Below are positions 1,085 through 28,900 of a stretch of 64,000 nt of DNA, piece by piece. The translations under genes were made by a program, and so were the position numbers. The notes beneath the pieces were generated by a model that searched no databases, was not told the origin of the DNA, and saw only the letters and a program-made list of their open reading frames with translations. The DNA is from Desulfosudaceae bacterium (GTDB lineage Bacteria; Desulfobacterota; Desulfobacteria; Desulfobacterales; Desulfosudaceae): assembly GCA_963674745.2 (NCBI GenBank), contig CAXXDV010000003.1, positions 1,056,001 through 1,120,000 of the forward strand, given 5' to 3'. Positions within the stretch are counted from its first letter, which is position 1, and every line of letters begins with the position of its first letter.

Positions 1085-1693
1085 ATGAGCGAACAGAATA
1101 AAAACACACTAAATCCGGACAAATATTCCCTGATCCTGGAAGCGGCCATCAGTGTTATTGCCGAGGAGGGCTTTTTTAACTCCACGGTTTCCAAAATCGC
1201 CAAAGCCGCCGGCGTGGCCGATGGTACCATTTATCTCTATTTTAAAAATAAAAACGATATCCTGCTTCATTTTTTCAATTACAAGACCCGCCAGGTATTT
1301 GACGAGTTCCGCAAGGCAGTTGATAAGGGGCAGGATGCCAGAAGCAAATTAAACAATCTTATCCGGGCCCATATACGGGAATTTAAAAAAGACAAAAACA
1401 TGGCCGTCGTTTTTCAGGCCGAGGCCCGTCAGATAAGATATTTTGAGTTGTATATCAAGGATATTACCCATATGTATTTCGACCTGGTCGGGGAAATCGT
1501 TTTACAGGGACAGGAAGAGGGTATATTCAGAAAAGATATGGAGTTGAGCCTGGTCAAGCGGTTTATCCTCGGGGCAGTGGACGAGGTGATCAATACCTGG
1601 CTGCATGCCGGGGATACGTTTGACATTGAAGCCCAGGCGGAAGGACTGGTGGAATTATTCCTTCACGGCATCGGCGGCCGGAAGGAAAGCTGA
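1085..1693 (+). CDS. fadR: TetR-family fatty-acid degradation regulator (FadR/YsiA-like)
   Basis: HTH IAKAAGVADGTIYLYFKNK. ATG 1085 follows GGAAGGA; the ORF-track start at 1043 lies in the operator. Confidence 0.85.
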   Translation: MSEQNKNTLNPDKYSLILEAAISVIAEEGFFNSTVSKIAKAAGVADGTIYLYFKNKNDILLHFFNYKTRQVFDEFRKAVDKGQDARSKLNNLIRAHIREFKKDKNMAVVFQAEARQIRYFELYIKDITHMYFDLVGEIVLQGQEEGIFRKDMELSLVKRFILGAVDEVINTWLHAGDTFDIEAQAEGLVELFLHGIGGRKES

Positions 1694-1802
1694 TAGACAT
1701 GTAATCAACAAGCGAGGAAAACTTACAACAAGTTATAATTTGGATGGCAAAGTAAAAAGTTCATTGAATTTTTTACAAAACCAGCAATCAAGGAGAAGGA
1801 CT

Positions 1803-3608
1803 ATGGCACAAAATGTAGCGGATAGAAGAGATGTCGATTTTGTTCTGCATGAACAGTTTCATGCGGAAGAATTGAGCAAAAACGAGCTGTTTGCCGATTT
1901 CAACCGGAAGACGATCGACATGATCGTCAACGAGGCGCGCGGTCTGGCCCTGAAGGAACTGTGGCCCATCAACAAGGAAGGTGATGAAATCGGCGTTACG
2001 TTTGACGGCGGCAAGGTCAGCGTTCCCGAATCGTTTCATCGGGCCTACAAACTGCTGATGGAAGGTGAGTGGATCGCCATGGCCGAAGACCTGGAAGTCG
2101 GCGGGCAGGGCATGCCGAATCTGGTCGAACGGGCGGCCAGCGACTATCTGCTGGGTGCCAACTTTGCATTCATGCTGTATGCAGGCCTTACCCACGGCGC
2201 CGGCAAACTGGTTGAAGCTTTTGGCTCGCCGGAACAGAAGGCCATGTATTTGAAAAAGCTTTTTTCCGGTGAGTGGTCCGGCACCATGCTGCTGACCGAG
2301 CCGGAAGCCGGTTCGGATGTAGGCGCCCTGACCACCTCGGCGGTCAAGAATGATGACGGCACTTACTCTATCACCGGTTCCAAGATATTTATTTCCGGCG
2401 GCGAACACGATATGACCGAAAACATTATCCATCCCGTTCTGGCCCGTATCGAAGGTGCACCTGCCGGAACCAGGGGTATTTCCCTGTTTCTGGTACCCAA
2501 GTACCGTGTCAATCCCGACGGCAGCCTGGGCAAGTTCAACGATGTGGTCTGCACCGGCATTGAAGAGAAGATGGGGATTCACGGCAGCGCCACCTGCTCA
2601 TTGACACTGGGCAGTAAGGGAGAATGTATCGGTGAGCTCATCGGCGAAGAAAACAAGGGCATGATGGAGATGTTCCTGATGATGAATGATGCCCGCCTGC
2701 TGGTGGGATTCCAGGGTTTTGCGTGTGCCACGGCCTCTTACCTGGAAGCGCTGAATTACGCCCGCACCCGGGTTCAGGGCAGACCCCTAACGGCGGGTAA
2801 GGACGCTTCCATCGGCGGTGTTCCCATTATTCAGCATCCGGATGTGCGGCGCCAGTTGATGAACATGAAGGTGTTCGTGGAAGGGCTGCGCAGCCTGATT
2901 TATTATGTCGGTTACTGTATGGACATGGCCAAGATTGCTGATTCCGATGAGGAAAAAGAGAAATACGCCGGCCTGGTTGAAATTCTGACCCCTATTGTCA
3001 AAGGTTACGGCACGGATCGGGCCTTTGACGTCTGCAGCCACGGTGTCCAGGTTTTCGGCGGGTACGGATATACCAAGGAATACCCGGCCGAGCAATACAT
3101 GCGCGACTGCCGTATTACCATGATTTACGAGGGCACCAACGGTATTCAGGCCATGGACCTGTTGGGCCGGAAAATGACCATGAAAAAAGGTAAACTGGTG
3201 ACGGACCTGTTCGGTGAAATCCAGAAAACCATTGCCGAAGCCGGTCAGATTGATACCCTGAAAACCCCGGCCGATAAAGTCACCGAGGCTATGACCAAAC
3301 TGGGTGAAGCCGGCAGCCACCTGGGCAAAACGGCGATGCAGAATGTCGAACAGGCGTTTTTGTACGCCCACCCCCTCCAGGATGTGTGCGGTGACGTTAT
3401 CATGGCCTGGATGCTGCTCTGGCGTGCCTGTGTTGCGGCCAAAGCCCTGGAGAAAAACCCCAAGGACGCCGCTTTCTACGAAGGCCAGATCAAGTCGTTG
3501 ACCTTTTTTGTGAACACGGTTCTGCCGGCGACCCTGGGTAAAGTAAATGCCATTATGGCGACGGATACGTCTGCCATTGACATCGCCGATGCCTCTTTCG
3601 GCGGATAA
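1803..3608 (+). CDS. Acyl-CoA dehydrogenase (long, about 600-aa type)
   Basis: TMLLTEPEAGSDVG, GSKIFISGG, EEKMGIHGSAT, QVFGGYGY, IYEGTNGIQAMDL; RBS AGGAG before ATG 1803. Confidence 0.95.
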   Translation: MAQNVADRRDVDFVLHEQFHAEELSKNELFADFNRKTIDMIVNEARGLALKELWPINKEGDEIGVTFDGGKVSVPESFHRAYKLLMEGEWIAMAEDLEVGGQGMPNLVERAASDYLLGANFAFMLYAGLTHGAGKLVEAFGSPEQKAMYLKKLFSGEWSGTMLLTEPEAGSDVGALTTSAVKNDDGTYSITGSKIFISGGEHDMTENIIHPVLARIEGAPAGTRGISLFLVPKYRVNPDGSLGKFNDVVCTGIEEKMGIHGSATCSLTLGSKGECIGELIGEENKGMMEMFLMMNDARLLVGFQGFACATASYLEALNYARTRVQGRPLTAGKDASIGGVPIIQHPDVRRQLMNMKVFVEGLRSLIYYVGYCMDMAKIADSDEEKEKYAGLVEILTPIVKGYGTDRAFDVCSHGVQVFGGYGYTKEYPAEQYMRDCRITMIYEGTNGIQAMDLLGRKMTMKKGKLVTDLFGEIQKTIAEAGQIDTLKTPADKVTEAMTKLGEAGSHLGKTAMQNVEQAFLYAHPLQDVCGDVIMAWMLLWRACVAAKALEKNPKDAAFYEGQIKSLTFFVNTVLPATLGKVNAIMATDTSAIDIADASFGG

Positions 3609-8131: not shown

Positions 8132-8300
8132 GTAGGGGCAACCCCCCGTGGTTGCCCTTCATCAGGGCAGGCACGGGGGCCTGCCCCTACATTATTCATG
8201 AACGCCATCCACGGCCCAGGTTACCCTTTTGACCTCGGTCCGTAGGGGCAACCCCCCGTGGTTGCCCTTCATCAGGGCAGGCACGGGGGCCTGCCCCTAC
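8132..8300. repeat. Two 59-bp REP doublets (REPINs) downstream of RAYT
   Basis: GTAGGGGCAACCCCCCGTGGTTGCCC-ttcatca-GGGCAGGCACGGGGGCCTGCCCCTAC at 8132-8190 and 8242-8300. Confidence 0.92.
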
Positions 8301-8301
8301 A

Positions 8302-8871
8302 TTAAAAGCCTCTGTCCCTGCAATAATAATTGTCCGGGTTTTCCCGATCCAGATCCCATTTTCGGGCATTATTGATGATGTATTCCCTGGCCAGATTCAA
8401 TTCAGTCTCATCACGGATAATATGTTCATAATAATTACGTTGCCACAATCTGCCGGAAAACCTTGTCCAACCCCTTTGTTTAACTCCATCAACATATTGT
8501 TTCGTGGTTATGGTTTTAAAACGATGAACAACATCCGGTAACGATAATGTAGGGGCAACCCCCCGTGGTTGCCCTTCACCAGGGCAGGCACGGGGGCCTG
8601 CCCCTACAATAATTATAATGCCGTGAATATGATTTGGCATGATGGCAAATTTATCGATTTTTATACCGCTATAATATTCGGGTATTGCGCCCCAGACCAT
8701 TTGAATCATCAGGCCGATACCATTCAAAAACATGTTGCCGTCAACAATTTTTCCAAACAGGCATTTCCGGTTTTTCGTACATACCGTTACAAAATATGCA
8801 CCGGATTGTGAATAATCATATTTTTTTAAACGAATCGACCGCCGACGATGAGTAACGGGATTAAACACCAT
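8302..8871 (-). mobile_element. REP-associated tyrosine transposase (RAYT, IS200-like HUH Y1)
   Basis: RRSIRLKKYDYSQSGAYFVTVCT, HUH motif MPNHIHGI, WQRNYYEHIIR, EYIINN; flanked by REP doublets with one inside the gene. Confidence 0.92.
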
Positions 8872-8946: not shown

Positions 8947-9173
8947 GTAGGGGCAACCCCCCGTGGTTGCCCTTCATCAGGGCAGGCACGGGGGCCTGCC
9001 CCTACAACATTTGCAAACGGCCTGCAACACATCGAATCTGAAACCCCGATATTCCCCCCCGCAAAGCGGGCCGAATCCAGTCTCACCCCCCGTCCCCTTA
9101 AACACATAATCACCTAAACACATAACCACATCCCTAAATCCCTAAAACCCTAACACTCTAAAACTTTAAAACC
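8947..9173. repeat. REP doublet, minihairpin and 8-mer tract upstream of RAYT
   Basis: REPIN 8947-9005; CCCGCAAAGCGGG 9058-9070; TAAxCACx/TAAAACCC 8-mers 9099-9173. Confidence 0.85.
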
Positions 9174-9175
9174 GT

Positions 9176-10783
9176 TTAAGTCGTAATGTCCAGCAACCCG
9201 CCTGAAACGGCAGTTTCATTGAGCAGGGTATCGGTGATCTCTTCTTCGGCATCCCTTATTTTTCGTGCCGGCACGCCAAGGCTTTTGGCCAGCACGGTAA
9301 AGTCGACCTCTTCTTCCGGCCGCTGTTCAAGCGACTGGAAAAGAAGCGAGGTTATCCCCAGTTGATATCGGCTTTGGGTCTGGAATTCCCTGTGGTGCCG
9401 TTTTAACATCCCGGTTTCACTGATCAGAAAGACCCTGGCCTCAGGCCTGGCCAGTTTGGCGCCCAGGGCCAGTGGATACCCCGCGCCGGCAACATCAACA
9501 TCATCCAGCAGAAAACAATTATGCAATCCCGGAGGCATTAAATAAACCATGGCTACCCTGGCAACGGCAGGGCCTTCACAGATAACGATATCTTCGGGTG
9601 TAATAACGGCATTGATCCGTTCAATCGCGTGGATCATGCTATACAGGCGGTCTTCGTGAATGGTCAGGCACTCTCGCAGCCTGGACTTATGGGAAGCGAT
9701 GGTGACGAAAAGCGCCTTTTTCCAGTCACTGTTGATCGAAAGCAGTGATGTCATGTCGGACAAAATTCGGGAGAACTGTTCCATTATGGCCTGGGGCGAG
9801 CCCGACAAGCCGGTGGTAATGGGCATGATTGAGCCAAGAGAAGCCGTCAGTTCAGCGGTCTGGATGATTTTTATGTCGGGATTAAGAGCCGCCAGGGCGG
9901 TTGCCAGGCGGGCGGTTTCCTCATCCGCTTCAAACAGTATAATCAGGTCTGTTTCCGATAACAACCCTCTGTTCTGAGCGTTATCCCAAAGCCAGCATCC
10001 TCCCAGATTCAGTGTATAACCGGCGGCCAGCGTGCCAAAGGCCGGGGTCGAGGTGATGACCGGAGCGCCGGTAATCTGCAGAAAATCGGACAGGGCCTGG
10101 CCGGCCCTGGCCCGTTCCACGTTTCGACCGGCCAGCACCAGGGGTTTGCTGGATTTTTTGATCAACTCAACCGCTTCGGCAAGGCCGCGTTCATCCGGGT
10201 AAATCAGGCCTTTAAACCTGAAATCCGCGTCTGGAAAGAGGTCTCCCATTTTTTTGGCGGACACCCGCTTAAAACCGAATATGACATCTACCGGCGCGTC
10301 CAGGTGAACCGGTCCGGGTTCAGGCGCCAGTGCGGTTTTAAACGCCCGCTGAATGAGGTTGGGAATACGATCCCGGTGGTAGAGAATGGACGTGAACTTG
10401 GTGATGGGTTTGAATATTTCGTCCTGGTCACAGGCCTGCAGGTTTTCCTGGATCGGTTTCATCTTGTATGACTGGACCTGGGGCGAGATGGAAATCAGGG
10501 GCAGTCGTTCTTTCCATGCAAAATAAAGGGCGCCGATTTCATAGGCAATACCGGCACCGACGGTTGACATGACGCAGGCCGGTTTACCTGAAGCCAGGGA
10601 AAAACCGGCCGCCATCAGGGCACCCGCGCCTTCGTGCCGGGGAATGATCAGGGTCATGCCCGGTTCTTCGTCGATGGCAAAATGAATCGGGTTCATCTGG
10701 CCGCCGGGCAGGGTAAACACATGGGATATATTTTCCCTGGCCAGCGATTTAACGATCAGGTCGGCACCTAGCAAAGTCGGCAT
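9176..10783 (-). CDS. ThDP-dependent enzyme (acetolactate-synthase-like), subunit with intact Pyr domain and degenerate PP domain
   Basis: VFTLPGG and RHE(51)GAGALMA present; GDG..NN motif replaced by SETG..QS. Confidence 0.85.
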   Translation of the reverse strand: MPTLLGADLIVKSLARENISHVFTLPGGQMNPIHFAIDEEPGMTLIIPRHEGAGALMAAGFSLASGKPACVMSTVGAGIAYEIGALYFAWKERLPLISISPQVQSYKMKPIQENLQACDQDEIFKPITKFTSILYHRDRIPNLIQRAFKTALAPEPGPVHLDAPVDVIFGFKRVSAKKMGDLFPDADFRFKGLIYPDERGLAEAVELIKKSSKPLVLAGRNVERARAGQALSDFLQITGAPVITSTPAFGTLAAGYTLNLGGCWLWDNAQNRGLLSETDLIILFEADEETARLATALAALNPDIKIIQTAELTASLGSIMPITTGLSGSPQAIMEQFSRILSDMTSLLSINSDWKKALFVTIASHKSRLRECLTIHEDRLYSMIHAIERINAVITPEDIVICEGPAVARVAMVYLMPPGLHNCFLLDDVDVAGAGYPLALGAKLARPEARVFLISETGMLKRHHREFQTQSRYQLGITSLLFQSLEQRPEEEVDFTVLAKSLGVPARKIRDAEEEITDTLLNETAVSGGLLDITT

Positions 10784-10845
10784 GAGGATTGTCTTTCTTT
10801 AAAGATATCGTTTTTGAAAGCGTAATTTTTTTATTCAATCGAAAA

Positions 10846-11455
10846 AGGTTTTAGGTTTATGTGGTTAAGTGGTTAAGTGATTAAGTGATTAAGTGATTAA
10901 GTGATTAAGTGTTTAAGTGATTAAGTGTTTAAGTGTTTAAGTGGTTAAGTGTTTAAGCGGGCGCGGTGTGAGACTTGTTGCAGCCCGCTTTGCGGGGTTT
11001 TAAGTTTTAGAGTGTAATCGTTTTAATTTTTTTAGGTCTTGGTAATGTATGGTCTCGTAGGGGCAACCCCCTGTGGTTGCCCTTCATCAGGGCAGGCACA
11101 GGGGCCTGCCCCTACAATATGCATGAACACCATCCCCGGCCCGGGTTACCCGTTTTGCCCCGGCATTATTCATGAACACCATCCCCGGCCCGGGTTATCC
11201 GTTTTGCCCCGGCCCGTAGGGGCAACCCCCTGTGGTTGCCCTTCATCAGGGCAGGCACGGGGGCCTGCCCCTACAGCATTTGCGGACGGCCTGTAATAAA
11301 GCTGAACCTTAAATCTCGGTCCTTCCCCCGCAAAGCGGGCCGATTCCCGACCTCGAACCCCGTCCCCATAACCACTTAACCACTTAAACACATAATCACT
11401 TAACCACCTAAACACATAACCACCTAAAACCCTAAAACCCTAAAACTCTAAAACC
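10846..11455. repeat. Composite intergenic repeat module
   Basis: (GTG[GAT]TTAA)x12 at 10861-10956; CCCGCTTTGCGGG 10984; REPINs 11057-11115 and 11216-11274; CCCGCAAAGCGGG 11327; inverted 8-mers 11368-11455. Confidence 0.88.
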
Positions 11456-11501
11456 ATCTTCTAAAAGGCCACAGCCTTCCGCTATCTAACCCCTGCCCGT
11501 T

Positions 11502-13352
11502 TTACATGGTCTTAAACAGAAACTTGACCATATTCCATGAATTCCGGCTGAACAGGTTCAACCGGTTTTGATACAAGCGAAGGGCTTTTTTCAGGGGCAG
11601 CGGAAACAAAGACCCCATGAACTCAACCCGTATAAAACTGGCCAGGGCATCAGGATAGACATTTTTATCCGTCGGAATGTCGATCAGTACCGGATGGTCG
11701 GCCTGGATCGCATCCCGGATCATGGCCGGCACGTCTTCCAGCCGGGTAACGCGTTTAACCGTAATGCCGAACGCTTCGGCCACATCGGCGTAATTCTGTT
11801 CCGGCAGTTCCGTGCTGACCGGCCGGTTGACCATCACCTCGCCGGCCCGGATCATGTTCCAGGCGGAATCATTGTTGACCACAATGGTAATCGGCAGGTT
11901 GTAACGTTTCATCAGTTCCAGTTCCTGGATATTGTACATCAGGGAACCATCGCCGGTCAGGAGCATGACCGGTTTTTCCGGGGCGGCCGCTTTAAGCCCC
12001 AGGGCCATGGGAATGCCCACGCCCAGGGTGGCCATGCCGGTGGGGAAAAAAACACGCTTAGGGCCTTTGACGCGCATGGTCATGCCCGCCCACAGGGGGG
12101 TATTGCCACCGTCGACGACAGCAATGGCATCCGATTTTTCGATATATTCCCTGGCGGCCAGCAGTCCGGCCGCGGGATGAAATTTTCCGTCTTTGCCCCG
12201 GTGGTCGCGGGCTTCTTTTTGCAGTCGTTTTTCGTGATCCCGGTTTTTCTGTTTTAAGTGGTTGACCCACCCGGACCAGTCGGGCAGGGGGGGATCATGT
12301 TCGACCAGATCGAGCATCTGGGAGAGAAACAGACCGGCGTCAGCGATGATGGCCGTCCGTGCTCCCGGGTTCAAGGCAATGTACTGGTGATCGATGTTGA
12401 CCTGGATGAACTTGATGCTGCCTGACCAGAGCGGTGGCAGGCCGAAACCGTCCAGGCCGCTGAAACAGGCCCCGACAGCCAGGACCACGTCCGCCTGTTT
12501 GATCGCCGTGTGAAAAGCTTCACCGGCCAGGTAACTTGACGGCCCGATATACATGGGATTGCCCGGGTCAACCACGTCCAGCGCGCCCATACTGGAAAGC
12601 AGCGGAATGCCGGTTTTTTCGGCCAGCCGGTTGAGCAGATCGGCGGCATTGGCTTTGACGACGCCCCCGCCGGCAAAGATGAACGGCCGCCTGGCGGTCC
12701 TGATCAGATCAAGGGCCTGACGGATTTTTTCCGGTTCTCCCATTGGCGGCACAACATGGGGAACCCAGCCGGCAAACGGGTTTTCTCCCCCGGGCACTTT
12801 AATCTCAGATACTTTTCGGGATTCGAGCAGGGGCAGCGGGATACGAATGTGGGCCGTTCCGCCCCGGCCGCTGACGGTTTCCCGGGCGGCGCGCTGGACG
12901 GCGGGCGCCAGATCACGGATCTTGTGGATGGTCGTATGATACACGCAAACCGGCGCGAACACGTCTTCAAGGTTGGTGGCTTCGCGATCAAATACCGGCG
13001 AGCGGGGAAAATCTGTCTCCTGGCACACGGCGATGGTGATTACCGGTGATTTGTCGCCCCAGGCGGTGGTTACGCCCATGACCTGGTTCAGGCAGTGACC
13101 GCCGCCCGTGGTCAGTGAAACCACCGGTTTTCCGGTATAACGGGCACAGGCGTCTGCCATGGGAACACATGCGATATCACTGACCGGTTGAACGAGGTGC
13201 AGACCGTTGATGTTTTTTATCGCCCGGGCAATAAAATCGGTTGTGGGATGATCTTCCATGAAAACGTATTCAATACCGCACGCTTTTAAGGTTTGAACCA
13301 GGATTATGGCGCCGGTTGCATTGTCCCTGTTATTGATATCGGGTGCGCCCAT
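11502..13352 (-). CDS. ThDP-dependent enzyme (acetolactate-synthase-like), subunit with intact PP domain and degenerate Pyr domain
   Basis: TGDGSLMYNIQEL...VNNDSAW intact; N-terminal PG and RHE replaced by EDH and VSD. ATG 13352 follows GGAGA. Confidence 0.88.
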   Translation of the reverse strand: MGAPDINNRDNATGAIILVQTLKACGIEYVFMEDHPTTDFIARAIKNINGLHLVQPVSDIACVPMADACARYTGKPVVSLTTGGGHCLNQVMGVTTAWGDKSPVITIAVCQETDFPRSPVFDREATNLEDVFAPVCVYHTTIHKIRDLAPAVQRAARETVSGRGGTAHIRIPLPLLESRKVSEIKVPGGENPFAGWVPHVVPPMGEPEKIRQALDLIRTARRPFIFAGGGVVKANAADLLNRLAEKTGIPLLSSMGALDVVDPGNPMYIGPSSYLAGEAFHTAIKQADVVLAVGACFSGLDGFGLPPLWSGSIKFIQVNIDHQYIALNPGARTAIIADAGLFLSQMLDLVEHDPPLPDWSGWVNHLKQKNRDHEKRLQKEARDHRGKDGKFHPAAGLLAAREYIEKSDAIAVVDGGNTPLWAGMTMRVKGPKRVFFPTGMATLGVGIPMALGLKAAAPEKPVMLLTGDGSLMYNIQELELMKRYNLPITIVVNNDSAWNMIRAGEVMVNRPVSTELPEQNYADVAEAFGITVKRVTRLEDVPAMIRDAIQADHPVLIDIPTDKNVYPDALASFIRVEFMGSLFPLPLKKALRLYQNRLNLFSRNSWNMVKFLFKTM

Positions 13353-13365
13353 GGCATCTCCATTT

Positions 13366-13971
13366 TTACGGGGTGATAAGCTCAATCATTTTTTTCGATG
13401 CATACTCACCGACATCTGCCAGGGCGTCGATCGGCAGAAAATCGGCGGCATTGGATGAATAAAGACAGGTCACGGATGCCGGAAAATCTTCATCGGCGGC
13501 ATAAAAGATATAGCAGAGGCATATTTTCGGTAAGGGGTTGACGGTAAAGGCCAGATCCCCCCCGATACCATCCGGCGCGCTGCCGCCATTGAAATGTTCC
13601 CGGACGAGGTCGGCCGATTCCATGATTTTGTCCGCATGCGGTACGAGGATCTGTTCGGTGTGGGTGTGAAAAGCGCCGGCATAGGGCATGGTGTCCGGGA
13701 ACTCTTTGTAGGCCCTATACGGTTCCTTGCGGCAGGGCGCTGCTGTCGTATGAAGGGCATAAAGGGAAATGATGATGCCTCTGGGGTCGGTTACCTGAAC
13801 GTTTCCCAGGCTGATCCCCTCGGGTGAAATGATGCAGGTATCGCCGAAAGCGTCAAAAACAAACCGGTCCCCGTCTATTGTCGCCGGCAGGCGGTTGACG
13901 GCCGAACCAGACGCATTTTCATAAAACCTCAACAGGTTGTCGCGGATGATGGCTTCGTAGTTGCTGCCCAT
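13366..13971 (-). CDS. DUF3786-like protein
   Basis: IIISLYAL, PLPKICLCYIFYAADEDFPASVTCLY, FLPIDALAD pattern recalled for DUF3786. Confidence 0.7.
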   Translation of the reverse strand: MGSNYEAIIRDNLLRFYENASGSAVNRLPATIDGDRFVFDAFGDTCIISPEGISLGNVQVTDPRGIIISLYALHTTAAPCRKEPYRAYKEFPDTMPYAGAFHTHTEQILVPHADKIMESADLVREHFNGGSAPDGIGGDLAFTVNPLPKICLCYIFYAADEDFPASVTCLYSSNAADFLPIDALADVGEYASKKMIELITP

Positions 13972-14078: not shown

Positions 14079-14234
14079 GTCTTTTAAAAAAGAGTTCCTG
14101 GATACTCAATATGGTCTTGATGTTAACACCGGATTACGGTATAAAATAAACATATCATCAAGTAGGTAATCATACACGGATTTGATTTCACGGCAAACGT
14201 TTTTTAAGATTTACCATTTTTGTTCGGGGGGCAT

Positions 14235-14795
14235 ATGGGGTTAAAAGTCAAGGGAACCGTATTGATAGACCTCGTCAAACAGGTCCGGTCGGCAAAAGAC
14301 CGGAATTGGGAAAAGTATCTGACAGCCGAAGATATGGAGTTGATTAACGGTGAGATAATGACGTCTTCCTGGTATCCGGATGATTTTTTTTACCGCCTGT
14401 CTCTGGCGGTGTTCAAGGTTACCGGCGAATCCAATCTCGACAATTCTTTTGCTTATGGCCAGTTGACTGCTCATAATATGGCCGATGTGTATAAAAATGT
14501 GATCGTTCAAAACGACCCGGCCACCACCATCGAGCGTTTTGTTTCGCGCCGGAAGTCGTTTTTCAGTACCGACTACCAGGACTCTGAAAGAAATCAGGTC
14601 ATCAAGGACGACAAAAAGGTTACCATCTACACCATCAGTGATAAAAAGATTAGGGGAACGGAAGTATCTGAAGTAATAATGTACTCCGTTATGGGTGTGG
14701 CTCATGAGCTGGCCACCATCGTCGGCGGACACAACGTGCAGTCCCATCTGGTTAAGCATAACGAGGGCTTTAAAATAACCATCAGCTGGTTATAG
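14235..14795 (+). CDS. Hypothetical protein, paralog 1 (possibly TIGR02265/V4R-like)
   Basis: VKGT...WYP pattern; shares long identical blocks with the next ORF. Confidence 0.7.
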   Translation: MGLKVKGTVLIDLVKQVRSAKDRNWEKYLTAEDMELINGEIMTSSWYPDDFFYRLSLAVFKVTGESNLDNSFAYGQLTAHNMADVYKNVIVQNDPATTIERFVSRRKSFFSTDYQDSERNQVIKDDKKVTIYTISDKKIRGTEVSEVIMYSVMGVAHELATIVGGHNVQSHLVKHNEGFKITISWL

Positions 14796-14808: not shown

Positions 14809-15369
14809 ATGACAGTTCAGGTCAAGGGCACCCTTCTGGTTGATCTTGTTAAACAGGTTCGGGTGGCCCGGGATAAAGATTGGGAGACGTATTTGACGCC
14901 GGAAGACATGGTGCTGATCAACGGTGAAATCCTGACATCCGCCTGGTACCCGGATGATTTTTTTTATCGCCTGTCTTTAGCGGTATACAAGGTCATCGGC
15001 GAATCCAGTCTGGATGCCTGTTTCGCCTACGGGCAGCTTGCGGCCCACAATATGGTCGAAGTTTATAAAAACATTTTGGTTCCGGACGATCCGGCCACGA
15101 CCATCGAGCGCTTTGTGGTCCGTCGTCAGACTTTTTTCGAAACGGATTATCCGGATGACGAACAGAATCGCGCGGAAAAGGGTGACGGCCGGATAACGGT
15201 ATATACCATCGCCGACACAAAGATTCGAGGCACAGAAACAGCCGACGTCGTCATCAATTCGCTGCTGGGCATATTTTACGAACTGGCGGTTATCGCCGGC
15301 GGAAAAAATGTCCAAACCGACATTCAACACATAGGCGAACAGCACGCACTGACCGTGACCTGGAATTGA
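14809..15369 (+). CDS. Hypothetical protein, paralog 2
   Basis: RBS AGGAG; tandem paralog of 14235-14795. Confidence 0.75.
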   Translation: MTVQVKGTLLVDLVKQVRVARDKDWETYLTPEDMVLINGEILTSAWYPDDFFYRLSLAVYKVIGESSLDACFAYGQLAAHNMVEVYKNILVPDDPATTIERFVVRRQTFFETDYPDDEQNRAEKGDGRITVYTIADTKIRGTETADVVINSLLGIFYELAVIAGGKNVQTDIQHIGEQHALTVTWN

Positions 15370-15380
15370 CGCCGGCCATG

Positions 15381-16691
15381 TCAGGCGTCACGGTCAAATT
15401 CCGTCGACATATAAAGTTCCACGGGATGACAGACCTGAATGTCTGTTCCGCCATGTTTTGACAACAATCCCGCCAGTTGAATCATGCAGGCCGGGCAGGC
15501 GGTGGCCACCATCCGGCAGCCGCTGGCAATGATATTCTCCCGCTTGCGTCCGCCAATTTTTTCGGACAGGTCGTTGTGGGCCAGCCCGAACCCGCCGCCC
15601 ATGCCGCAGCAGACATCCGCTTCCGCCATTTCAATCAGCCGGTAGGCCGGGTTGGCGGCAATCAGTAGCCGTGGGGCCTGGTGTACGCCCAGGGATTTTT
15701 TCAGATGACATGGGTCGTGATAGGTCACAGCAATGCCCTTATCGTTCGGGCGGGGCGGGTCCGTATCCAGGCCGGCAGCGATCAGTTCCGTTATATCCAT
15801 TGTCTTTTCGGATAATTGTTGGACAAAGGCGTATTCCTGGTCTTGCGGGTCGACCATCATGGGCCAGATTTTTTTGATGGTAAAGGTACAGGTGGCGCAG
15901 GCCGTGACCAGTCGATCAAAAGAAAGCGATTTAAACCGGTTTAGGTTATATGACAGTAACTGCCGGAAGGATTCGCCGTCTCCCGCTGACAGGGCGGGAA
16001 TACCACAGCATCCTTCGCTGTCCGGTAAAATGACGTTAAAACCCTGATGCGCCAGCGCCTTGACGGAAGCCCTGGCTACCTGCGGAAACACCTTGTCGAG
16101 CAGGCAGCCGGTGAAAAAAAGAACCGTTTCTTTTCCGGTCGTCTGTGCCTGATGCTTTTCGACTATTTTTTGACGATGAAAGGGAACCGGTGCCAGCGGC
16201 ACCACATGTCGACCGGCCAGAAGGGGGGAGGCTGTAATCCGGGCGCAACTGGTTCCCAGCCCGGGATTGACTTGTTTTAAAAACAGCCCCTGTGATTTTG
16301 CCGCCAGATCGGCGGCCCGGTTGAATCTTTCCGGTTTTGCCAGCAGCTGCCGGAAAACGATTTTTTTCAAGGGGGACAGGCCCAGGTATCCGGCCAGCAA
16401 CACCCGGGCTTTTAAGAAAATTTCCAGTGTATTGACACCGTTGGGGCAGACACCGGCGCAGCCGCCGCAAAGAAGGCAGCGGTCCAGCCGGTCTTTGACG
16501 CTGTCGGCGTTTTTGACCACCTCGGACATGACGCCTTCCAGGATGGCGATTTTACCCCGGGCCACATCCCTTTCCAGTCTTGTTTGCGGGTAAATCGGGC
16601 AGGCGGACAGGCAAACCCCGCACTGTTTGCAGACGGCGGTCTGTTGTTCGAGCGATCCGGCCAGGCGCGCCAGTTCTTTGATGTGCTTCAT
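15381..16691 (-). CDS. GlcF-like Fe-S oxidoreductase (2x[4Fe-4S] plus two CCG domains)
   Basis: CKQCGVCLSACP, CLLCGGCAGVCP, CCGIP, YHDPCH, CCGMGG, TACPAC. Start moved to 16691 because the upstream extension reads through a repeat end. Confidence 0.88.
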   Translation of the reverse strand: MKHIKELARLAGSLEQQTAVCKQCGVCLSACPIYPQTRLERDVARGKIAILEGVMSEVVKNADSVKDRLDRCLLCGGCAGVCPNGVNTLEIFLKARVLLAGYLGLSPLKKIVFRQLLAKPERFNRAADLAAKSQGLFLKQVNPGLGTSCARITASPLLAGRHVVPLAPVPFHRQKIVEKHQAQTTGKETVLFFTGCLLDKVFPQVARASVKALAHQGFNVILPDSEGCCGIPALSAGDGESFRQLLSYNLNRFKSLSFDRLVTACATCTFTIKKIWPMMVDPQDQEYAFVQQLSEKTMDITELIAAGLDTDPPRPNDKGIAVTYHDPCHLKKSLGVHQAPRLLIAANPAYRLIEMAEADVCCGMGGGFGLAHNDLSEKIGGRKRENIIASGCRMVATACPACMIQLAGLLSKHGGTDIQVCHPVELYMSTEFDRDA

Positions 16692-16793
16692 GCCTATGTC
16701 CGTATTCTTATTGTTGATGGCCTCGTAAAAAGCCCTTATACGCCATTCCGGGCTTGGAGACGGTGCCGTAATGTGTAATTCCAACCTTATTTA

Positions 16794-19947: not shown

Positions 19948-22900
19948 ATGAACAAATCACATCAAACCGACCGGTCGTTTTCTAAAATAACCGTTGGTAA
20001 AAGATTGCCGGGCGCGCCGGCTTTGCACGAGCGCCTGGTAAAATCAGCGCTGTGTCTCCTGGTTCTGATGGCAATGGGCCTGATGCTGACCACTGTTGCC
20101 ATGGCGGCCCCCGCCACATATTGGTGTAAAGATGGTGACGGCGATGGCTGGGGTGATCCCACTAATTGGGAGTATTGCAAAAAGAAGAATCTTCCGTCAG
20201 GGATATGGTACAAGTGGAGTACCGGCCTGTGCGAGGATTGCAACGACAGTGAAGCCGGTATCAACCCGGATGCGGACGAAATTTGCGGGGACGGCATCAA
20301 CAACAACTGTACTGGTGGGGTGGATGAAAGCTGTTACGACTGGTATCGGGACAGTGACATTGATAATTACGGCGATTCCAGTGACATTAAATCGGCCCAG
20401 ACCCAGCCGACGGGATATGTATTGGATTCTACCGATTGTGACGACACCCGGGGCGATGTCTACCCCAATGCCACTGAATTGTGCGACGGCGTGGACAATG
20501 ACTGCGACACCGACGTGGACGAAGGCTGCCAGACCTGGTACCGCGACGCCGACAACGACGGCTATGGCACGGCCGGTGACACCACTTCGGCCGCTTCAAA
20601 GCCGGCGGGTTATGTGGCCGACAATACGGACTGTGACGATACCCGCTCCAATGTCAACCCCGGCCAAAGCGAGATCTGCGACGGCCTGGACAACAATTGC
20701 GACGGCGATACGGATGAAGGCTGTGAGACCTGGTATGAGGACGCCGACGGTGACGGTTACGGCAATCCCGCTGTTTTCTTTAGCGGCCACAACCCGACCG
20801 GGTATGTTTCTAACAGCCTCGATTGTAATGACTTAAACGCCGCGATAAGTCCAGACGCAACCGAAGTCTGCGACGGTGTGGACAACAACTGTAACGGCGT
20901 TACGGATGAAGGCTGCCAGACCTGGTATCAGGACGCTGACGGCGACGGGTTTGGAAACCCGGCCGTAACCGCGTTCCTTTTTAACCCGCCGCCCGGCTAT
21001 GTGAGCGACAATACCGACTGTGACGATACCGACGCCGACATCTATCCGGGCGCGAATGAAATTGACGGCGACGGCATCGACAACAACTGCGACGGTCTGA
21101 CCGATGAAAGCAGTCTCTGGTATGAGGACAGCGACAACGACGGTTTTGGTAAGCCGGACGTGAGCACTACCGGCTTTTCCCAGCCGCCAGGATATGTTGC
21201 CGACAACACGGATTGTGATGACAGCGATAATTTTACTTACCCGGGCGCACCGGAGATATGCGATGACGGAATCGATAACAATTGCAACGGCGCCGTGGAT
21301 GAAGGGTGCAATACCTGGTATCGGGATGCCGACAACGACGGTTACGGAGACCCGGCTGTGTGGGTTATCGCCGATGCCAAACCCGCCGGTTATGATTATG
21401 TTTCCGACAACACGGACTGTGACGACAGCAATCCCCTTGTCAATCCCGCCGCTGACGAGCTCTGTTTAGACTCGATTGACAATAACTGCGACGGGCAAGT
21501 TAATGAAAATTGTTACGTCTGGTATGAGGACGGCGATGGTGACGGGTACGGTAATCCCGGAGTGACCACCTGGGCCACTTCACAACCGGGCGGTTTTGTA
21601 AACAACCTGCGGGATTGTGATGATACCGACGCGGCCGTCAATCCAGATGCCGCTGAAATCTGCGATGGTTATGACAACAACTGTAACGGTGTTATTGATG
21701 AAGGCTGCGAGGGGAAATGGTACCGGGACAGTGACGGTGACACTTACGGCGATTCGAGTGATTCTTCAGACACCCAGCAGCCGGGTTATGTACCCGTGCC
21801 GGGCGACTGTGACGACAGCAATCCCCTGGTTTATCCCGGCAGGGATGAAATCTGCAACGACGGAATCGACAACAATTGCGTAGGCGGCATTGACGAGGGC
21901 TGTCTTTACTGGTATCCGGATGATGACTTTGACGGCTTCGGCGATATCGATTCAGCCAGTGCCGTCAGGGCGTATGCGGCGCCGGCCGGATATACCGCCG
22001 ACCACTCGGACTGTAATGACGGCAACTCCGACATTAATCCCGACGCGACTGAAATCTGCAACGGTGCCGATGACGATTGCGACGGTTTTACGGACGAGGG
22101 CTGCGCTGACTGGTATCAGGATTATGATGGGGACGGATACGGCAATCCCGCGGTACCCGCCACTTCGGTCGTTCAGCCGGCGGGGTATGTGGACAACAGC
22201 CTCGATTGTGATGATGAAGACTCCAATGTCAATCCCGGTATGCACGAGGACTGCGCCAACAATGTTGATGATGATTGTGACGGTGAAATAGACGAAGGCT
22301 GTATTATCTGGTACCAGGACTTTGACGGTGACGGCTGGGGTAATTCCTCCGTCATTAAGGCCCTTGATACCCAACCGGACGGCTATGTGGAAAGGGGGGG
22401 GGATTGCAACGACCATAGCACCAGTATCAATCCCGGCGCTCTAGAAGTCTGTGATGATACCTTTGACAACAACTGTGACGGCAACATAAATGAAGGCTGC
22501 CAGGCCTGGTATTATGATAATGATGGTGATGGCTGGGGATCGGCTCTAGAGGATGATATCGGATACGCAACCACCCAGCCTGACGATTACGTAGACCGGG
22601 CCGGCGATTGCGATGACGAAGATGCTGCCGTCAATCCCGATGCGTCGGAAGTCTGTGACACCTATGATAATGACTGTGACGGTTTCACGGATGAAGGCTG
22701 CACGATCTGGTATGAGGACGGTGACCACGACGGATGGGGGTCGGCAACTTCCCAGGTGGCGATTACCGCCCCACCCAATTTCGTGGACATTACCGGTGAC
22801 TGTGACGATGCCGTTGCCGCCATTAATCCCGGCGCCGTCGAAATCTGTGACGGTATTGATAATAATTGCGATTTGAGTGTCGACGAGGGCTGCACCGACT

Positions 22901-25900
22901 GGTACCAGGACGCCGACGGCGACAACTACGGAGATGCGTCCGTTTCCGTTATTGATAATGTTCAGCCGGGTGGTTACGTGTCGGATAACACGGACTGTGA
23001 TGATGCCGTTTTCGCCGTCAACCCCGGTGTTGCCGAGGTATGCGACGACGGTATCGACAACAACTGTGACGGCGAAGCCGATGAAGGCTGTCAGGTCTGG
23101 TACCGGGACGCCGACAATGATACCTGGGGGGATATTGCCAATACGATGACCGGCAAGTCCCAGCCCCTCGGTTATGTTTACAGATCCGGTGACTGCGATG
23201 ATTCGGATGCCGCCATCAATCCCGACGCGGCCGAAGTATGCGACGGCGATGACAACAACTGCAATACCTATATTGATGAAGGTTGTCTGGACTGGTTTTT
23301 AGATGCTGATGGTGACGGATTCGGCGATCCCGCCACCCTGCAGACAGCCATCAACTTGCCGTCGCCGGATCATGTACTGAACGGCCTGGACTGCGTTGAT
23401 ACCGACGAGGACGTGAATCCGGACGCGGTTGAAATCTGCGACGGAATCGACAACAACTGTGACGGCAACACGGATGAAGGCTGCCTGACCTGGTATCGGG
23501 ACAGCGACGGCGACACCTACGGTGATCCGGGTGACACCACCGTTTCCCAGGTCCAGCCGCCCGGCTATATCCTTGACGGCACGGATTGCGATGACACCCG
23601 TTTGGAAGTCCATCCCGGGGCTGCGGAAATCTGCGACACCCTGGATAACAACTGTGACGGCGATACGGATGAAGGCTGCCTGACCTGGTATCGGGACAGC
23701 GACAGCGACACCTACGGTGATCCGGGTGTATCCACCGTTTCCCTGGTCCAGCCGGCCGGCTATGTGGCCGATAATACGGACTGCAATGATGCTGTTTTCG
23801 CCATCAACCCCGGTGTCGCCGAGGTATGTGCGGACGGCATTGACAACAACTGTGATGGTAACACGGACGAAGACTGCCTGACCTGGTATCGGGACAGTGA
23901 CGGCGACACCTACGGTGATCCGGGTGTATCCACCGTTTCCCAGGCCCAGCCGGCCGGCTATGTGGCCGATAATACGGACTGTGACGATACCGACGCGGCC
24001 ATCCATCCCGGCGGTGTGGAAGTGTGCGACGGCGATGACAACAATTGTAACGGCGACACGGACGAGGGCTGCCTGACCTGGTACCGGGACGCCGATGGTG
24101 ATAATTACGGTGATCCGGCATTGCCTAGCGTGTCCCAGACCAAACCGGTCGGGTTCGTGCTTGACAACACCGATTGCGATGATAGTGATCCGCTCATCAA
24201 CCCCGGTGCCCTGGAATTGTGTGACGCGGGACTGGATGATGAAGACTGTGACGGCGATGTAAACGAAGGCTGTCTGACCTGGTACTGGGACGGTGACGCC
24301 GATAATTACGGCGATCCGGCAACATCTGTTTATTCCCAGGTCCAGCCGGGCGGGTATCTGCTTAACGGCACGGATTGCGACGATACCAACGCGGCCATCC
24401 ATCCCGGGGCGGCGGAAATCTGCGACACCCTGGATAACAACTGTGACGGTAACACGGATGAGGGCTGTTTGACCTGGTATCGGGACAACGACAGCGATAC
24501 CTACGGTGATCCGGGTGTATCCACCGTTTCCCTGGTCCAGCCGGCCGGCTATGTGGCCGATAATACGGACTGTGACGATACCGACGCGGCCATTAACCCG
24601 GGCGCGCCTGAAGTGTGCGACGGCGTTAATGACGAGAACTGCGACGGCAGCGTGGATGAAGGCTGCCTGACCTGGTACGAGGACAGTGATGGCGACAATT
24701 ACGGCAACCCGGGCGTGTCCGTCGATGCTGTCATTCCGCCGCCCGGCTATGTGTCCGACAACACCGATTGTGACGATACCAACGCGACGATCCATCCCGG
24801 TGGTGTGGAAGTGTGCGACGGCGTTAATGACGAGAACTGCGACGGGTCGGTGGACGAAGGCTGCCTGACCTGGTACGAGGACAGTGACGGCGACAAATAC
24901 GGCAACCCGGGCGTGTCCGTCGATGCTGTCATTCCCCCGCCCGGCTATGTGTCCGACAACACCGATTGTGACGATACCAACGCGACGATCCATCCCGGTG
25001 GTGTGGAAGTGTGCGACGGCGTTAATGACGAGAACTGCGACGGGTCGGTGGACGAAGGCTGCCTGACCTGGTACGAGGACAGTGATGGCGACAATTACGG
25101 CAACCCGGGCGTGTCCGTCGATGCTGTCATTCCGCCGCCCGGCTATGTGTCCGACAACACCGATTGTGACGATACCAACGCGACGATCCATCCCGGTGGT
25201 GTGGAAGTGTGCGACGGCGTTAATGACGAGAACTGCGACGGGTCGGTGGACGAAGGCTGCCTGACCTGGTATCGGGACAGTGACGGCGACAAATACGGCA
25301 ACCCGGGCGTGTCCGTCGATGCTGTCATTCCGCCGCCCGGCTATGTGTCCGACAACACCGATTGTGACGATACCAACGCGACGATCCATCCCGGTGGTGT
25401 GGAAGTGTGCGACGGCGTTAATGACGAGAACTGCGACGGGTCGGTGGACGAAGGCTGCCAGACCTGGTACCTGGACAACGACGGCGACAATTACGGCGAT
25501 GCCGGCGTTTCCATGACGTCCAACTTCCAGCCGCCCAATTATGTGCTGGACAACACCGACTGTGACGATGGCGATGCCGCCATCAACCCGGCCGGCACGG
25601 AAATCTGTGATGGCCTCAATGACGAGAACTGCGACGGGTCGGTGGACGAAGGCTGCCGGACCTGGTTCCGGGACAGCGACGGCGACAATTACGGCGATGC
25701 CGGTGTGTCTACCATTGGCGTGGTTCAGCCGGGCGGATATGTGCTGGACAACACCGACTGTGATGATACTGAACCATTGAGGAACCCGGGTATGGCCGAA
25801 GTCTGCGGGGATACCCTGGACAATGATTGCAACGGGCTGGTGGATGACAGTTGCGCCAACTGGTACAAGGATACTGATGGTGACGGTTATGGCGATCCGG

Positions 25901-28900
25901 CTGTGCCAAGTATGGCCGTAGGTCAACCGGCTGGATACGTGGGCAAGGCTGGTGATTGCGACGACACCGAGTTCAACATCAACCCCGGTGTAGTAGAGGT
26001 GTGCGACGGCGCGGTAGATGAAAACTGCAACGGCCAGGTGGATGAAGGCTGTCTGACCTGGTATATTGACTCTGATGGCGATGGTTATGGCACTAACTGG
26101 TCTGTCGTGCAATCCATCACCCAGCCGGCCGGATACGTGTTAAAAGACGGCGACTGCGTTTTCGATAACCCGGCGATACATCCGGGTGCTTTGGAGGTCT
26201 GCGACGGTGATGACAATAATTGTGACGGCAACGTGGATGAAGGCTGTCTGACCTGGTACGAGGACAGCGACGGCGACTCTTACGGGAATGCGGCCGTTTC
26301 CTCGACAGCCATCGTGCCGCCGGCCGGATATGTGCTTGACGACACGGATTGTGACGACACGAATTTTAATGTCAACCCGGGCGCGATTGAAGTGTGCGAC
26401 GGCGTCAATGACGAGAACTGCGACGGGTCGGTGGACGAAGGCTGTAATACCTGGTACCAGGACAGTGACGGCGACGGGTACGGTAACGCCGGCGTTACGG
26501 CCGTGCATATCGTGCCGCCGGCCGGCTGGGTGCTTGACGGTACGGATTGTGACGACACGAATTTTAATGTCAACCCGGGCGCGATTGAAGTGTGCGACGG
26601 CGTCAATGACGAGAACTGCGACGGGTCGGTGGACGAAGGCTGTAATACCTGGTTCCAGGACAGTGACGGCGACGGGTACGGTAACGCCGGCGTTACGGCC
26701 GTGCATATCGTGCCGCCGGCCGGCTGGGTGCTTGACGATACGGACTGTGACGACACGAATTTTAATGTCAACCCGGGCGCGATTGAAGTGTGCGACGGCG
26801 TCAATGACGAGAACTGCGACGGGTCGGTGGACGAAGGCTGTAATACCTGGTTCCAGGACAGTGACGGCGACGGGTACGGTAACGCCGGCGTTACGGCCGT
26901 GCATATCGTGCCGCCGGCCGGCTGGGTGCTTGACGGTACGGACTGTGACGACACGAATTTTAATGTCAACCCGGGCGCGATTGAAGTGTGCGACGGCGTC
27001 AATGACGAGAACTGCGACGGGTCGGTGGACGAAGGTTGTAATACCTGGTACGAGGACAGTGATGGCGACAATTACGGCAACTCGGGCGTGTCCGTCGATG
27101 CTGTCATTCCGCCGCCCGGATATGTTCTTGACGACACGGATTGTGACGACGGTGATTTCAACATTCATCCCGGGGCAGTGGAGGTGTGCGACGGCACCAA
27201 TGACGAGAACTGTGACGGCAGTGTGGACGAAGGCTGCCAGACCTGGTACCGGGACGCCGACAGTGACGGTTACGGGGATCCGTCTGACAACATGGTTACC
27301 ATTATCCAGCCGCCGGGTTATATTTCCGACAACACCGACTGCGACGACACCAAGGCCGCGGTCAATCCCGGTGCGACCGAAGTGTGCGACGGCATCGACA
27401 ACAACTGTGCCGGTGGCATAGATGAAGGCTGTGACTTCTGGTACCGGGACAACGACCATGACAACTTTGGTAATCCCGGGGTGTCTGTCTGGGCCGTGAT
27501 CCAGCCGGCCGGCTATGTAAACGATTTTACGGATTGTGATGACAGCGATGCCGCCATTAATCCGGCTGCTGTGGATATATGCGGCGACGGTGTTGACAAC
27601 AACTGCGACGGCTCGACTGATGAAGATTGCCTTGATTGGTATCGTGACCTTGACGGGGACAACTTCGGGTATATTGGCGATAAACATGTTTCACGCGTCC
27701 CGCCTGCCGCGAATTATATCTCCGACAACACGGACTGCAACGACAACAATCCCGCAGTGTATCCCGGTGCGGCAGAAGTGTGCGACTCCATCGATAATGA
27801 TTGTGACGGCGACACCGATGAAGGCTGCCAGACCTGGTACGAGGACAATGACGGCGACGGTTACGGCAACTCCGCTGCGCCTCAGACAAGCCCGAGCCGG
27901 CCGGCCGGTTATGTCTTTAACGACACGGACTGCGACGACACCGACCCGGCCATCCATCCCGGCGGTGTGGAAGTGTGCGACAGCGTTGACAACAACTGTG
28001 ACGGCGACACCGATGAGGGCTGCCAGACCTGGTATGCGGACGACGATAGTGACGGTTACGGGGATTCGTCTGACAGCATGGATACCATTATCCAGCCGCC
28101 GGGCTATGTGTCCGACAACCAGGATTGTGACGACACCAATCCGGCCATCCATCCCGGAGTGCCTGAAGACTGTGACGGCGTTGACAACAACTGTGACAGC
28201 CAGACAGATGAAGGCTGCATGATGTGGTATCAGGATCTGGACGGGGATAATTACGGAAACCCGGGTGTAGTCCTTAATGAAGTCATCCAGCCGGCGGGTT
28301 ATGTGTCTGACAACACGGATTGCAAGGATGACAACCCGGCCATTCATCCCGGAGTTCCTGAAGACTGCAATGATAGTTTTGACAATGATTGTAACGGGTT
28401 GGTTAATGACGGTTGCATGACGTGGTTCCAGGACGTTGACAGTGACGGATACGGTAACGCTTCTGTTTCCGTAGATGAAGTCGTCAAGCCGTTCGGTTAT
28501 GTGGCCGACAACACCGATTGCGACGACACCAAGGCCTTTGTTAACCCCGGCATTCTGGAAGTTTGCGACGGCTTCGACAATGATTGCGACGGCGGCGTGG
28601 ACGAGGGCTGCCGGACCTGGTATCAGGACAATGACCACGACGGTTTCGGAACCGGCACTACCGCTACGGCGGTTTTACAGCCGGGCGGTTACACGGCCCT
28701 GACCGGTGATTGTGACGACACCAATCCGGCGATTCACCCCGGCGCCCTGGAAATCTGCGACACCATCGACAATGATTGCGAAGGCGGCATAGACGAGGGC
28801 TGCCGGACCTGGTATCAGGACAATGACGGTGACGGTTTCGGTTCGACGAATACTGGCGAGGCTGTTGGCTCCTTACCCGGTTACGTGGCCGAACCCGGCG

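Follow-up and report, generated by a model that had tools for sequence, protein, structure and literature searches.

The question raised by this locus is whether two neighbouring genes, here named A and B, encode two separate thiamine diphosphate (ThDP) enzymes or two subunits of a single one. Both genes lie on the minus strand of a 64,000-nucleotide (nt) stretch from a Desulfosudaceae bacterium (assembly GCA_963674745.2, contig CAXXDV010000003.1, positions 1,056,001 to 1,120,000), and this whole stretch is hereafter named the window. Enzymes with this ThDP fold are regarded as symmetric dimers in which the two sites are equivalent. In the window, A keeps the active-site motifs of the Pyr domain and has lost those of the diphosphate- and Mg-binding PP domain, whereas the PP motifs are intact in B. 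The original prediction, made from the sequence of the window, was that an AB heterodimer rebuilds one complete site. After the comparative analysis described below, we consider it likely that A and B form an obligate AB heteromer in which each dimer holds a single ThDP site. The extents of the two genes and their active-site features are the following (residue numbers in brackets).

9176-10783, minus strand: gene A, 535 amino acids (aa); intact three-domain ThDP-fold protein with an intact Pyr (Glu) half-site and a degenerate PP domain
11502-13352, minus strand: gene B, 616 aa from the ATG; intact three-domain ThDP protein with an intact diphosphate/Mg (PP) half-site
10424-10717, minus strand: active-site loops in the Pyr domain of A, fully or almost fully conserved in 35/35 A sequences and in the family alignment
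10700-10717, minus strand: A loop FTLPGG (23-28)
10628-10642, minus strand: A loop PRHE51G (48-52)
10538-10564, minus strand: A loop TVGAGIAYE (74-82)
10424-10459, minus strand: A loop KPIQENLQACDQ (109-120)
9326-9424, minus strand: degenerate former GDG (ISETGML, 454-460) and former NN (LLFQSLE, 480-486) of A
11856-11957, minus strand: intact ThDP-Mg motif of B, TGDGSLMYN (466-474) and NNDSAWN (493-499)
13170-13262, minus strand: weakly conserved Pyr loops of B, FMEDHP (31-36) in the place of the PGG loop and PVSD59IA in the place of RHE
12423-12464, minus strand: family-specific conserved stretch in the middle domain of B, FSGLDGFGLPPLWS (297-310), at the modelled interface
11613-11654, minus strand: conserved C-terminal tail motif of B, PDALASFIRVEFMG (567-580), touching A in the model

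Both genes had been described as near full-length, uninterrupted open reading frames (ORFs), and the ORF listing bore them out as intact. For B, an alternative ORF from a TTG start spans 11502-13385. The ATG at 13352, coincident with the end coordinate given in the original prediction, is the likely start because a GGAG lies 7 nt upstream of it and the resulting length of 616 aa is found in each of the four closest relatives.

A and B are three-domain ThDP enzymes of the ALS/HACL/BAL type. The N (Pyr), M and C (PP) domains (PF02776, PF00205 and PF02775) scored above the Pfam cutoffs in both proteins, with 90.6, 57.8 and 26.2 bits in A and 58.5, 105.1 and 125.3 bits in B; the C domain of A (residues 433-482) passed narrowly, with 26.2 versus 21.9 bits over 50 residues. 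Each protein matched more than 130 solved ThDP enzymes (E between 1e-19 and 1e-43), among which no single family stood out, and the best PDB sequence match of B was the HACS/OXC chain 8vzk (E 6e-43), nearly equalled by ALS chains. Another PDB match of B, 8rph, was discarded, since it is listed as JanthE, an unrelated carboligase. No NCBIfam equivalog cutoff was reached by either protein. With the ALS large-subunit models, A and B scored 163.5 and 217.7 for TIGR00118 (cutoff 538.35) and 121.6 and 176.3 for TIGR02418 (cutoff 551.1); with the HACL/OXC models, B scored 190.9 for NF058623 (cutoff 600), 187.9 for NF006721 (cutoff 557) and 178.6 for TIGR03254 (cutoff 739.4). The two proteins are about 21% identical, no closer to each other than either is to a canonical ALS, and the current source annotations of both genes read "acetolactate synthase large subunit" or "thiamine pyrophosphate-binding protein".

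Complementary motifs and mirrored conservation

Relatives of the pair were gathered by two protein searches, whole-genome searches and a profile scan (one genome per species; 34 loci). The motifs named in the original prediction (FTLPGG, RHE51 and SETG...QS in A; TGDGSLMYN...NNDSAW, EDH and VSD in B) were all found to be correct in the window. A carries S-E-T-G at the GDG position and Q-S at the NN position, and these losses are common to its family: neither G-D-G nor NN was present in any of the 32 A sequences extending over this part, and the column of the Mg-binding Asp was non-acidic in 48/48 metagenome proteins. The Pyr side of A is kept throughout. R-x-E, TVGAGxxYE and KPxQExLQ were found in all 35 sequences, Glu51 in all 35 and also in 48/48 metagenome proteins, and the GG pair in 33/35, the other two being anammox loci that carry G-E. 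The A protein was also said to have a shortened loop in its altered diphosphate motif. A shortening is present: in the HMMER alignment a deletion of about 18 residues lies directly after the former NN (A 481 to 492 versus BbmA 476 to 505), and no gap separates the former GDG and NN positions.

In the B family, GDG and N-D-x-[AS]-W-N were present in 33/33 covering sequences and in 88-90 of 90 metagenome proteins, with G467, D468, N494 and D495 each kept in 90/90. On the Pyr side, the B family as a whole has lost the PGG-type loop, and the other loops that contact the cofactor are no longer conserved. Invariant positions were also found in the 297-310 stretch of the middle domain and in the C-terminal tail of B (in the latter P567, D568, S572, F573, E577 and G580). 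The GDG-X(24-27)-NN motif of the ThDP superfamily is absent from A and present in B, so that only the pair as a whole possesses it. The activating Glu of the Pyr domain is present in A as Glu51, with Asp59 in its place in the B of the window. The complementary pattern of motifs is real, not a product of chance, and holds across both families.

The two proteins are mirror images of each other in conservation, expressed here as the percentage of alignment columns with at least 90% identity. In A it amounted to 34% in the Pyr domain, 4% in the middle domain and 7% in the PP domain; in B, to 7.5% in Pyr, 24% in the middle domain, 26% in PP and 20% in the tail. The Pyr domain of A is the best-conserved part of either protein. 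The same contrast was obtained with non-synonymous divergence (dN) relative to the closest relative, L010 (77% and 80% identical to the window pair), which was 0.044 and 0.138 in the Pyr and PP domains of A, and 0.147 and 0.078 in those of B. The ratio to synonymous divergence (omega, dN/dS) ranged from 0.03 to 0.25 across all domains and from 0.05 to 0.19 in the PP domain of A, values that are rough because dS (0.7-1.5) is near saturation. Omega is below 1 in every domain of A and B, which was one of the checks named with the original prediction, and therefore the degenerate domains are still constrained.

Linkage of the pair and the proposed single site

In the A-profile scan, 33 of 34 loci, distributed over many phyla, had B as the immediate upstream neighbour of A in the same orientation. 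Between the stop of B and the start of A, 30 of the 32 evaluable gaps measured -7 to +20 nt, and the other two 122 and 176 nt. Among 41 relatives, A was found in nine and B in eight; the two were adjacent in all eight genomes with B, and the ninth A was cut off by a contig end. A sample of the class (151 genomes) contained B in 10, with A adjoining in 10/10, and over all the B-bearing genomes sampled A was adjacent in 13/13. The expectation that orthologs of A and B co-occur was thereby borne out. By their titles, the records that carry the pair belong to Desulfobacterales, Desulfosudaceae, Desulfatibacillum alkenivorans DSM 16219, Smithella and Syntrophaceae, and also to Spirochaetes, Actinomycetota, Bacillota, Ca. 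Brocadia, Ca. Anammoxibacter and metagenome-assembled genomes (MAGs) of Myxococcota and Pseudomonadota. No fused B-A protein was detected among the best 150 matches out of 1.84 billion representatives: the matches with E <= 1e-40 were all at most 606 aa long, and two longer ones (842 and 1016 aa; E about 1e-30) were each single-stretch matches.

A and B make up an old unit that is inherited together. When the pairwise identities of A were set against those of B, the correlation was r = 0.92 (435 pairs, 30 loci), a value that is descriptive only because related loci are not independent. A tree was built in a quick LG+G4 run from 70 rows, comprising 11 A, 13 B and 46 generic ThDP proteins, the latter drawn at random from candidates of 530-630 aa (the pool of 520-640 aa held 199). 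A and B each formed one clade, with a support of 100 in the Shimodaira-Hasegawa-like approximate likelihood ratio test (SH-aLRT), and their internal splits matched. The two clades joined with an SH-aLRT of 72 and a branch length of 0.011; because this join is weak, a single founding duplication of A and B is put forward only as possible. In a genome of the same genus as the window (G002, C4:173731-176959), a distant subtype was the only pair found, Desulfatibacillum-like and 37% and 35% identical to B and A, respectively. This suggests a transfer of the pair between lineages or a differential loss of subtypes.

These data leave very little room for A and B being independent proteins of a common operon, or for A being a decaying pseudogene copy. 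The low A-B identity (about 21%) and the weak sister relation (SH-aLRT 72) would fit such an explanation, which we regard as highly improbable given the adjacency in 33/34 loci of many phyla with coupling-type gaps, the intact ORFs, an omega of 0.13 and the co-divergence (r = 0.92). A by itself is without evident activity of its own, because it has no ThDP-Mg motif.

In order to examine the fold and the contacts, structure models were analysed. The model of A had a predicted local distance difference test score (pLDDT) of 91.3 and a predicted template modelling (TM) score of 0.92, and it superposed on BAL, HACS and AHAS with a TM score of 0.85 over about 560 columns, so the degenerate PP domain of A is predicted to keep its fold. 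The complex was modelled from full-length B and residues 1-190 of A, each with its own family alignment. It scored 0.87, versus 0.00 for the best of three controls; this mark is attained by 116 of 157 solved complexes and by 2 of 215 mismatched pairs. The runs had at least 89% of the contacts in common, with a partner pLDDT of at least 87. On the A side the modelled contacts involve the GG loop (24-32), residues 47-50 beside Glu51, the GAG loop (76-78) and the QENLQ loop (112-116); on the B side, the GMATLG loop (438-443), the GDG region (469 and 472-473) and the NDSAWN region (498-505), together with residues 296-300 and 303 of the middle domain and 577-581 of the tail. In the model, these contacts reproduce the canonical Pyr/PP arrangement, and the part of the predicted assembly that joins the Pyr domain of A to B is to that extent supported.

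According to the reading that we prefer, A and B would be the two subunits of one heteromeric ThDP enzyme whose basic unit is an AB dimer, possibly assembled as A2B2. The PP domain of B (GDG...NNDSAWN) would anchor ThDP and Mg, and Glu51 of A would activate the aminopyrimidine of the cofactor, in a catalytic site walled by the conserved Pyr loops of A, the 297-310 stretch of B and the C-terminal tail of B. The other pocket, formed by the PP domain of A and the Pyr domain of B, would not bind ThDP-Mg and would survive as a folded scaffold; hence there would be one catalytic centre per dimer. We infer that A and B bind each other and that neither is active alone, so that either gene expressed singly would probably yield an inactive protein. 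The core of the original prediction, the rebuilding of one complete site by AB, is in this form supported by the motifs, the adjacency, the dN/dS values and the A(Pyr)-B model (0.87), but not in its assumption of a symmetric loss of the Glu.

Several observations weigh against this reading, and the first concerns that Glu. The change from RHE to VSD in B is not a trait of its family. The orthologs do have in common the loss of GDG and NN in A and of the PGG-type loop in B; at column 59 of B, however, Glu was found in 31/31 loci and in 85 of 90 metagenome proteins, and Glu or Asp in 90/90. The Asp59 of the window is a rare variant, common to four other proteins. B therefore keeps the Glu family-wide, and the loss is less symmetric than originally described. 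For this reason a site made by B only is conceivable, and the main rival explanation is that B is a self-sufficient homo-oligomer that uses its own Glu59, A being a non-catalytic paralog that regulates, stabilises or targets it. The intact GDG...NN of B, its conserved Glu and the lack of any ThDP-Mg site in A are in agreement with this. It fits poorly with the Pyr domain of A as the most conserved part (34% of columns, dN 0.044), including every loop that contacts ThDP in solved relatives, when the equivalent loops vary in B (7.5% of columns); a purely regulatory A would have no need for an invariant catalytic Glu and the GG, TVGAG and QE loops. We regard B working alone as unlikely.

A second rival explanation starts from the same column. 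Both sites of the AB dimer could be in use, with the pocket between PP(A) and Pyr(B) re-tooled for an effector, a second substrate or a metal, without ThDP. This would explain the retention of the acidic residue of B (E or D in 90/90) and of another one beside the former GDG of A, where the column before the former Asp holds E or D in 44 of 48 metagenome proteins. The PP domain of A is, in addition, under purifying selection (omega 0.05-0.19) and confidently folded. Few other residues of the pocket are kept, however (columns at least 90% identical: 7% in A PP and 7.5% in B Pyr), and the selection is explicable by scaffold constraint alone. Glu/Asp59 of B and the acidic residue of A leave room for a re-used second pocket, which we hold to be quite improbable next to an AB dimer with a single functional site.

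Two loci also depart from the rule of linkage. In L028 (2994-4663) an A-family gene stands without an intact B, the sole such locus: A is closely preceded there by a 46-residue relic of the B 3' end (43% identical to B 535-580), and a search of the MAG gave no B-family gene (best match 28% identity). L028 could be a decaying locus or an assembly chimera or error, and L013, in which B is carried in two frames, could likewise reflect decay or an assembly error. The complex model, built from B and A(1-190), does not discriminate the heterodimer from AA or BB homodimers, and its pass may show no more than likeness to the solved homodimers of this fold. The copy in the window could differ from the family norm because of Asp59 and of a 718-nt repeat insertion between the genes (see below). 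Finally, glyoxylate carboligase works without the Glu of the Pyr domain.

Communication between the sites of ThDP enzymes (half-of-the-sites and alternating-sites models) has been probed mostly with engineered hybrids. If the single-site AB arrangement is true, a natural and conserved one-site heterodimer would be a clean system to address whether two communicating ThDP sites are needed, and it would show clearly how two paralogs can be locked together by complementary degeneration.

Repeats, neighbouring genes and possible chemistry

The spacer between B and A in the window is a composite repeat element, and a further gene lies directly upstream of B.

10784-11501, unstranded: B-A spacer of 718 nt, composite repeat element (gap in relatives mostly -7 to +20 nt)
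10841-10968 and 11352-11447, unstranded: 8-nt tandem arrays (TTAAGTGA-like) in inverted orientation, flanking the palindromic units
11057-11115 and 11216-11274, unstranded: two 59-nt GC-rich palindromic units inside the B-A spacer
13366-13971, minus strand: DUF3786 gene (Pfam, 111 bits), ending 13 nt before the ATG of B

The 718-nt insertion may uncouple A from B transcriptionally. A near-identical block of 125 nt lies 3' of both stop codons (9056-9180 for A and 11325-11462 for B), and further palindromic units were observed at 8132-8300 and 8947-9005. An ORF of 189 aa (8302-8871, minus strand) gave a partial match to IS200-like Y1 transposases (31 bits, residues 106-167), and the same palindromic unit is also located inside its reading frame (8544-8607). 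This ORF could be a tyrosine transposase associated with repetitive extragenic palindromic (REP) sequences and linked to these repeats.

The DUF3786 gene is probably co-transcribed with B in the window. It was rejected as a core partner, since it stands beside the pair in only 2 of 35 loci (the window and L011), and the open literature gave one unrelated mention of DUF3786 and none together with thiamine. On the other strand, 14220-14795 and 14809-15369 encode tandem paralogous proteins of about 190 aa without a Pfam or NCBIfam match. Their language-model neighbours are hypothetical proteins of Myxococcota, a minority of them with DUF2378 or V4R; a resemblance to DUF2378/V4R small-molecule-binding proteins, by language-model features only, is taken as a lead. 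A homolog of these proteins is located beside the ThDP pair in L010, L011 and L013. The gene at 15381-16784 (minus strand) encodes a CCG and 4Fe-4S dicluster protein that resembles the C-terminal part of LdhH/GlcF-type subunits (268 bits versus a cutoff of 800); no flavin subunit was found beside it, and in L010 and L011 it again lies in synteny with the pair. Both this gene and the tandem genes recur in the closest relatives only (3 to 4 loci). At 19948-33783 (plus strand) lies a single ORF of 4611 aa.

The lipid-degrading context invoked in the original prediction did not hold as a conserved synteny: the lipid-type genes of the window, an acyl-CoA dehydrogenase (1605-3608), more than 5 kb away with unrelated genes between, and an AMP-ligase (49902-51569), are not syntenic with the pair. 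A CoA-ester or ketone context does recur in other loci. In the more distant loci the recurring neighbours, counted out of 35 loci, were short-chain dehydrogenases (SDR; 11), the enoyl-CoA hydratase family (7), glyoxalase-fold proteins (5), the CMD family (4), acyl-CoA dehydrogenase (3) and AraC regulators (3). In Syntrophaceae/Smithella-type MAGs (L042:3649-15583; also L039, L040 and L037) the pair heads an apparent operon, in the order AraC regulator, B, A, SDR, enoyl-CoA hydratase family, SDR, glyoxalase-fold, CMD family, alpha/beta hydrolase and acyl-CoA dehydrogenase.

Homology was rejected as a guide to the substrate, A and B being about equally distant from ALS, HACL/OXC, BAL, CDH and POX. 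The substrate may be of the alpha-hydroxy-carbonyl, 1,2-diketone or 2-hydroxyacyl-CoA type, within an anaerobic catabolic pathway. Because of the neighbour pattern (SDR, enoyl-CoA hydratase, acyl-CoA dehydrogenase and others), we tentatively propose as the chemistry a catabolic cleavage or ligation of a C-C bond next to a carbonyl (acyloin, 1,2-diketone or 2-hydroxyacyl-CoA), which is possible rather than likely. Members of the family come from anammox bacteria and from anaerobes that degrade hydrocarbons and ketones (Desulfatibacillum alkenivorans, Smithella, Syntrophaceae), and the family may therefore mark an unrecognised catabolic step. There is also a broader proposal, which we consider doubtful: the pairs might constitute an ancient, phylum-spanning class of single-site ThDP enzymes in which A activates and B anchors the cofactor. 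The vestigial pocket, with Glu/Asp59 of B and the acidic residue next to the former GDG of A, would be used in allostery or as a proton relay, and the enzyme would carry out a C-C lyase or carboligase step, as yet undescribed, in the anaerobic breakdown of ketones, alicyclic compounds or acyl-CoA.

Comparison with known systems

The three-domain fold of A and B is common to the homo-oligomeric ALS, AHAS, BAL, HACL and OXC enzymes, in which each site is formed where the PP domain of one chain meets the Pyr domain of its dimer partner, an arrangement also found in the modelled A-B contacts. Those enzymes have identical chains and two equivalent sites, whereas A and B are different full-length chains with one degenerate half-site each. 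In ComD/ComE sulfopyruvate decarboxylase and in E1 alpha/beta of the 2-oxoacid dehydrogenases, the Pyr domain is on one chain and the PP domain on the other; each subunit there is a split single-domain chain or a rearranged one, and the two symmetric sites both stay functional. The separate supply of Pyr and PP is alike in the A-B pair, but A and B are full length, not short chains of the ComDE type, each of them keeps all three domains, and only one of the two sites would survive. Glyoxylate carboligase, whose structures 2pan and 8i01 were among the PDB sequence matches, has the same fold and departs from the canonical Glu; it is a homo-oligomer with complete ThDP-Mg motifs, whereas the B family keeps the Glu, with Asp in the window copy.

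In the open-access literature, subscription journals not being covered, no natural case was found in which two full-length ALS-type ThDP paralogs form a heteromer and complement each other's half-sites. Within that scope, the proposed mixed pair, which is supported on comparative grounds, has no described counterpart in this class of enzymes.

Two described systems come close in other respects. The acetone- or ketone-activating ThDP enzyme of Desulfococcus biacutus and Desulfosarcina cetonica is described as a single protein of 77.6 kDa clustered with a B12-dependent mutase (PMC7888143, PMC8084838), and this sets it apart. It resembles A and B as an ALS-like, still uncharacterised ThDP enzyme from anaerobic sulfate reducers, for which the making or breaking of a C-C bond next to a carbonyl is proposed. 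As an identity for the pair it was rejected, given that the B12 mutase context of those reports is absent here; the scan of 28 window ORFs brought up no mutase. The dependence of an enzyme on a complex with an impaired or dead paralog is described for trypanosomatid deoxyhypusine synthase and S-adenosylmethionine decarboxylase (AdoMetDC) with its "prozyme" (PMC3663545, PMC5201418). These heteromers are eukaryotic, unrelated in fold and chemistry, and composed of one live and one dead chain, whereas the impairment of A and B is complementary.

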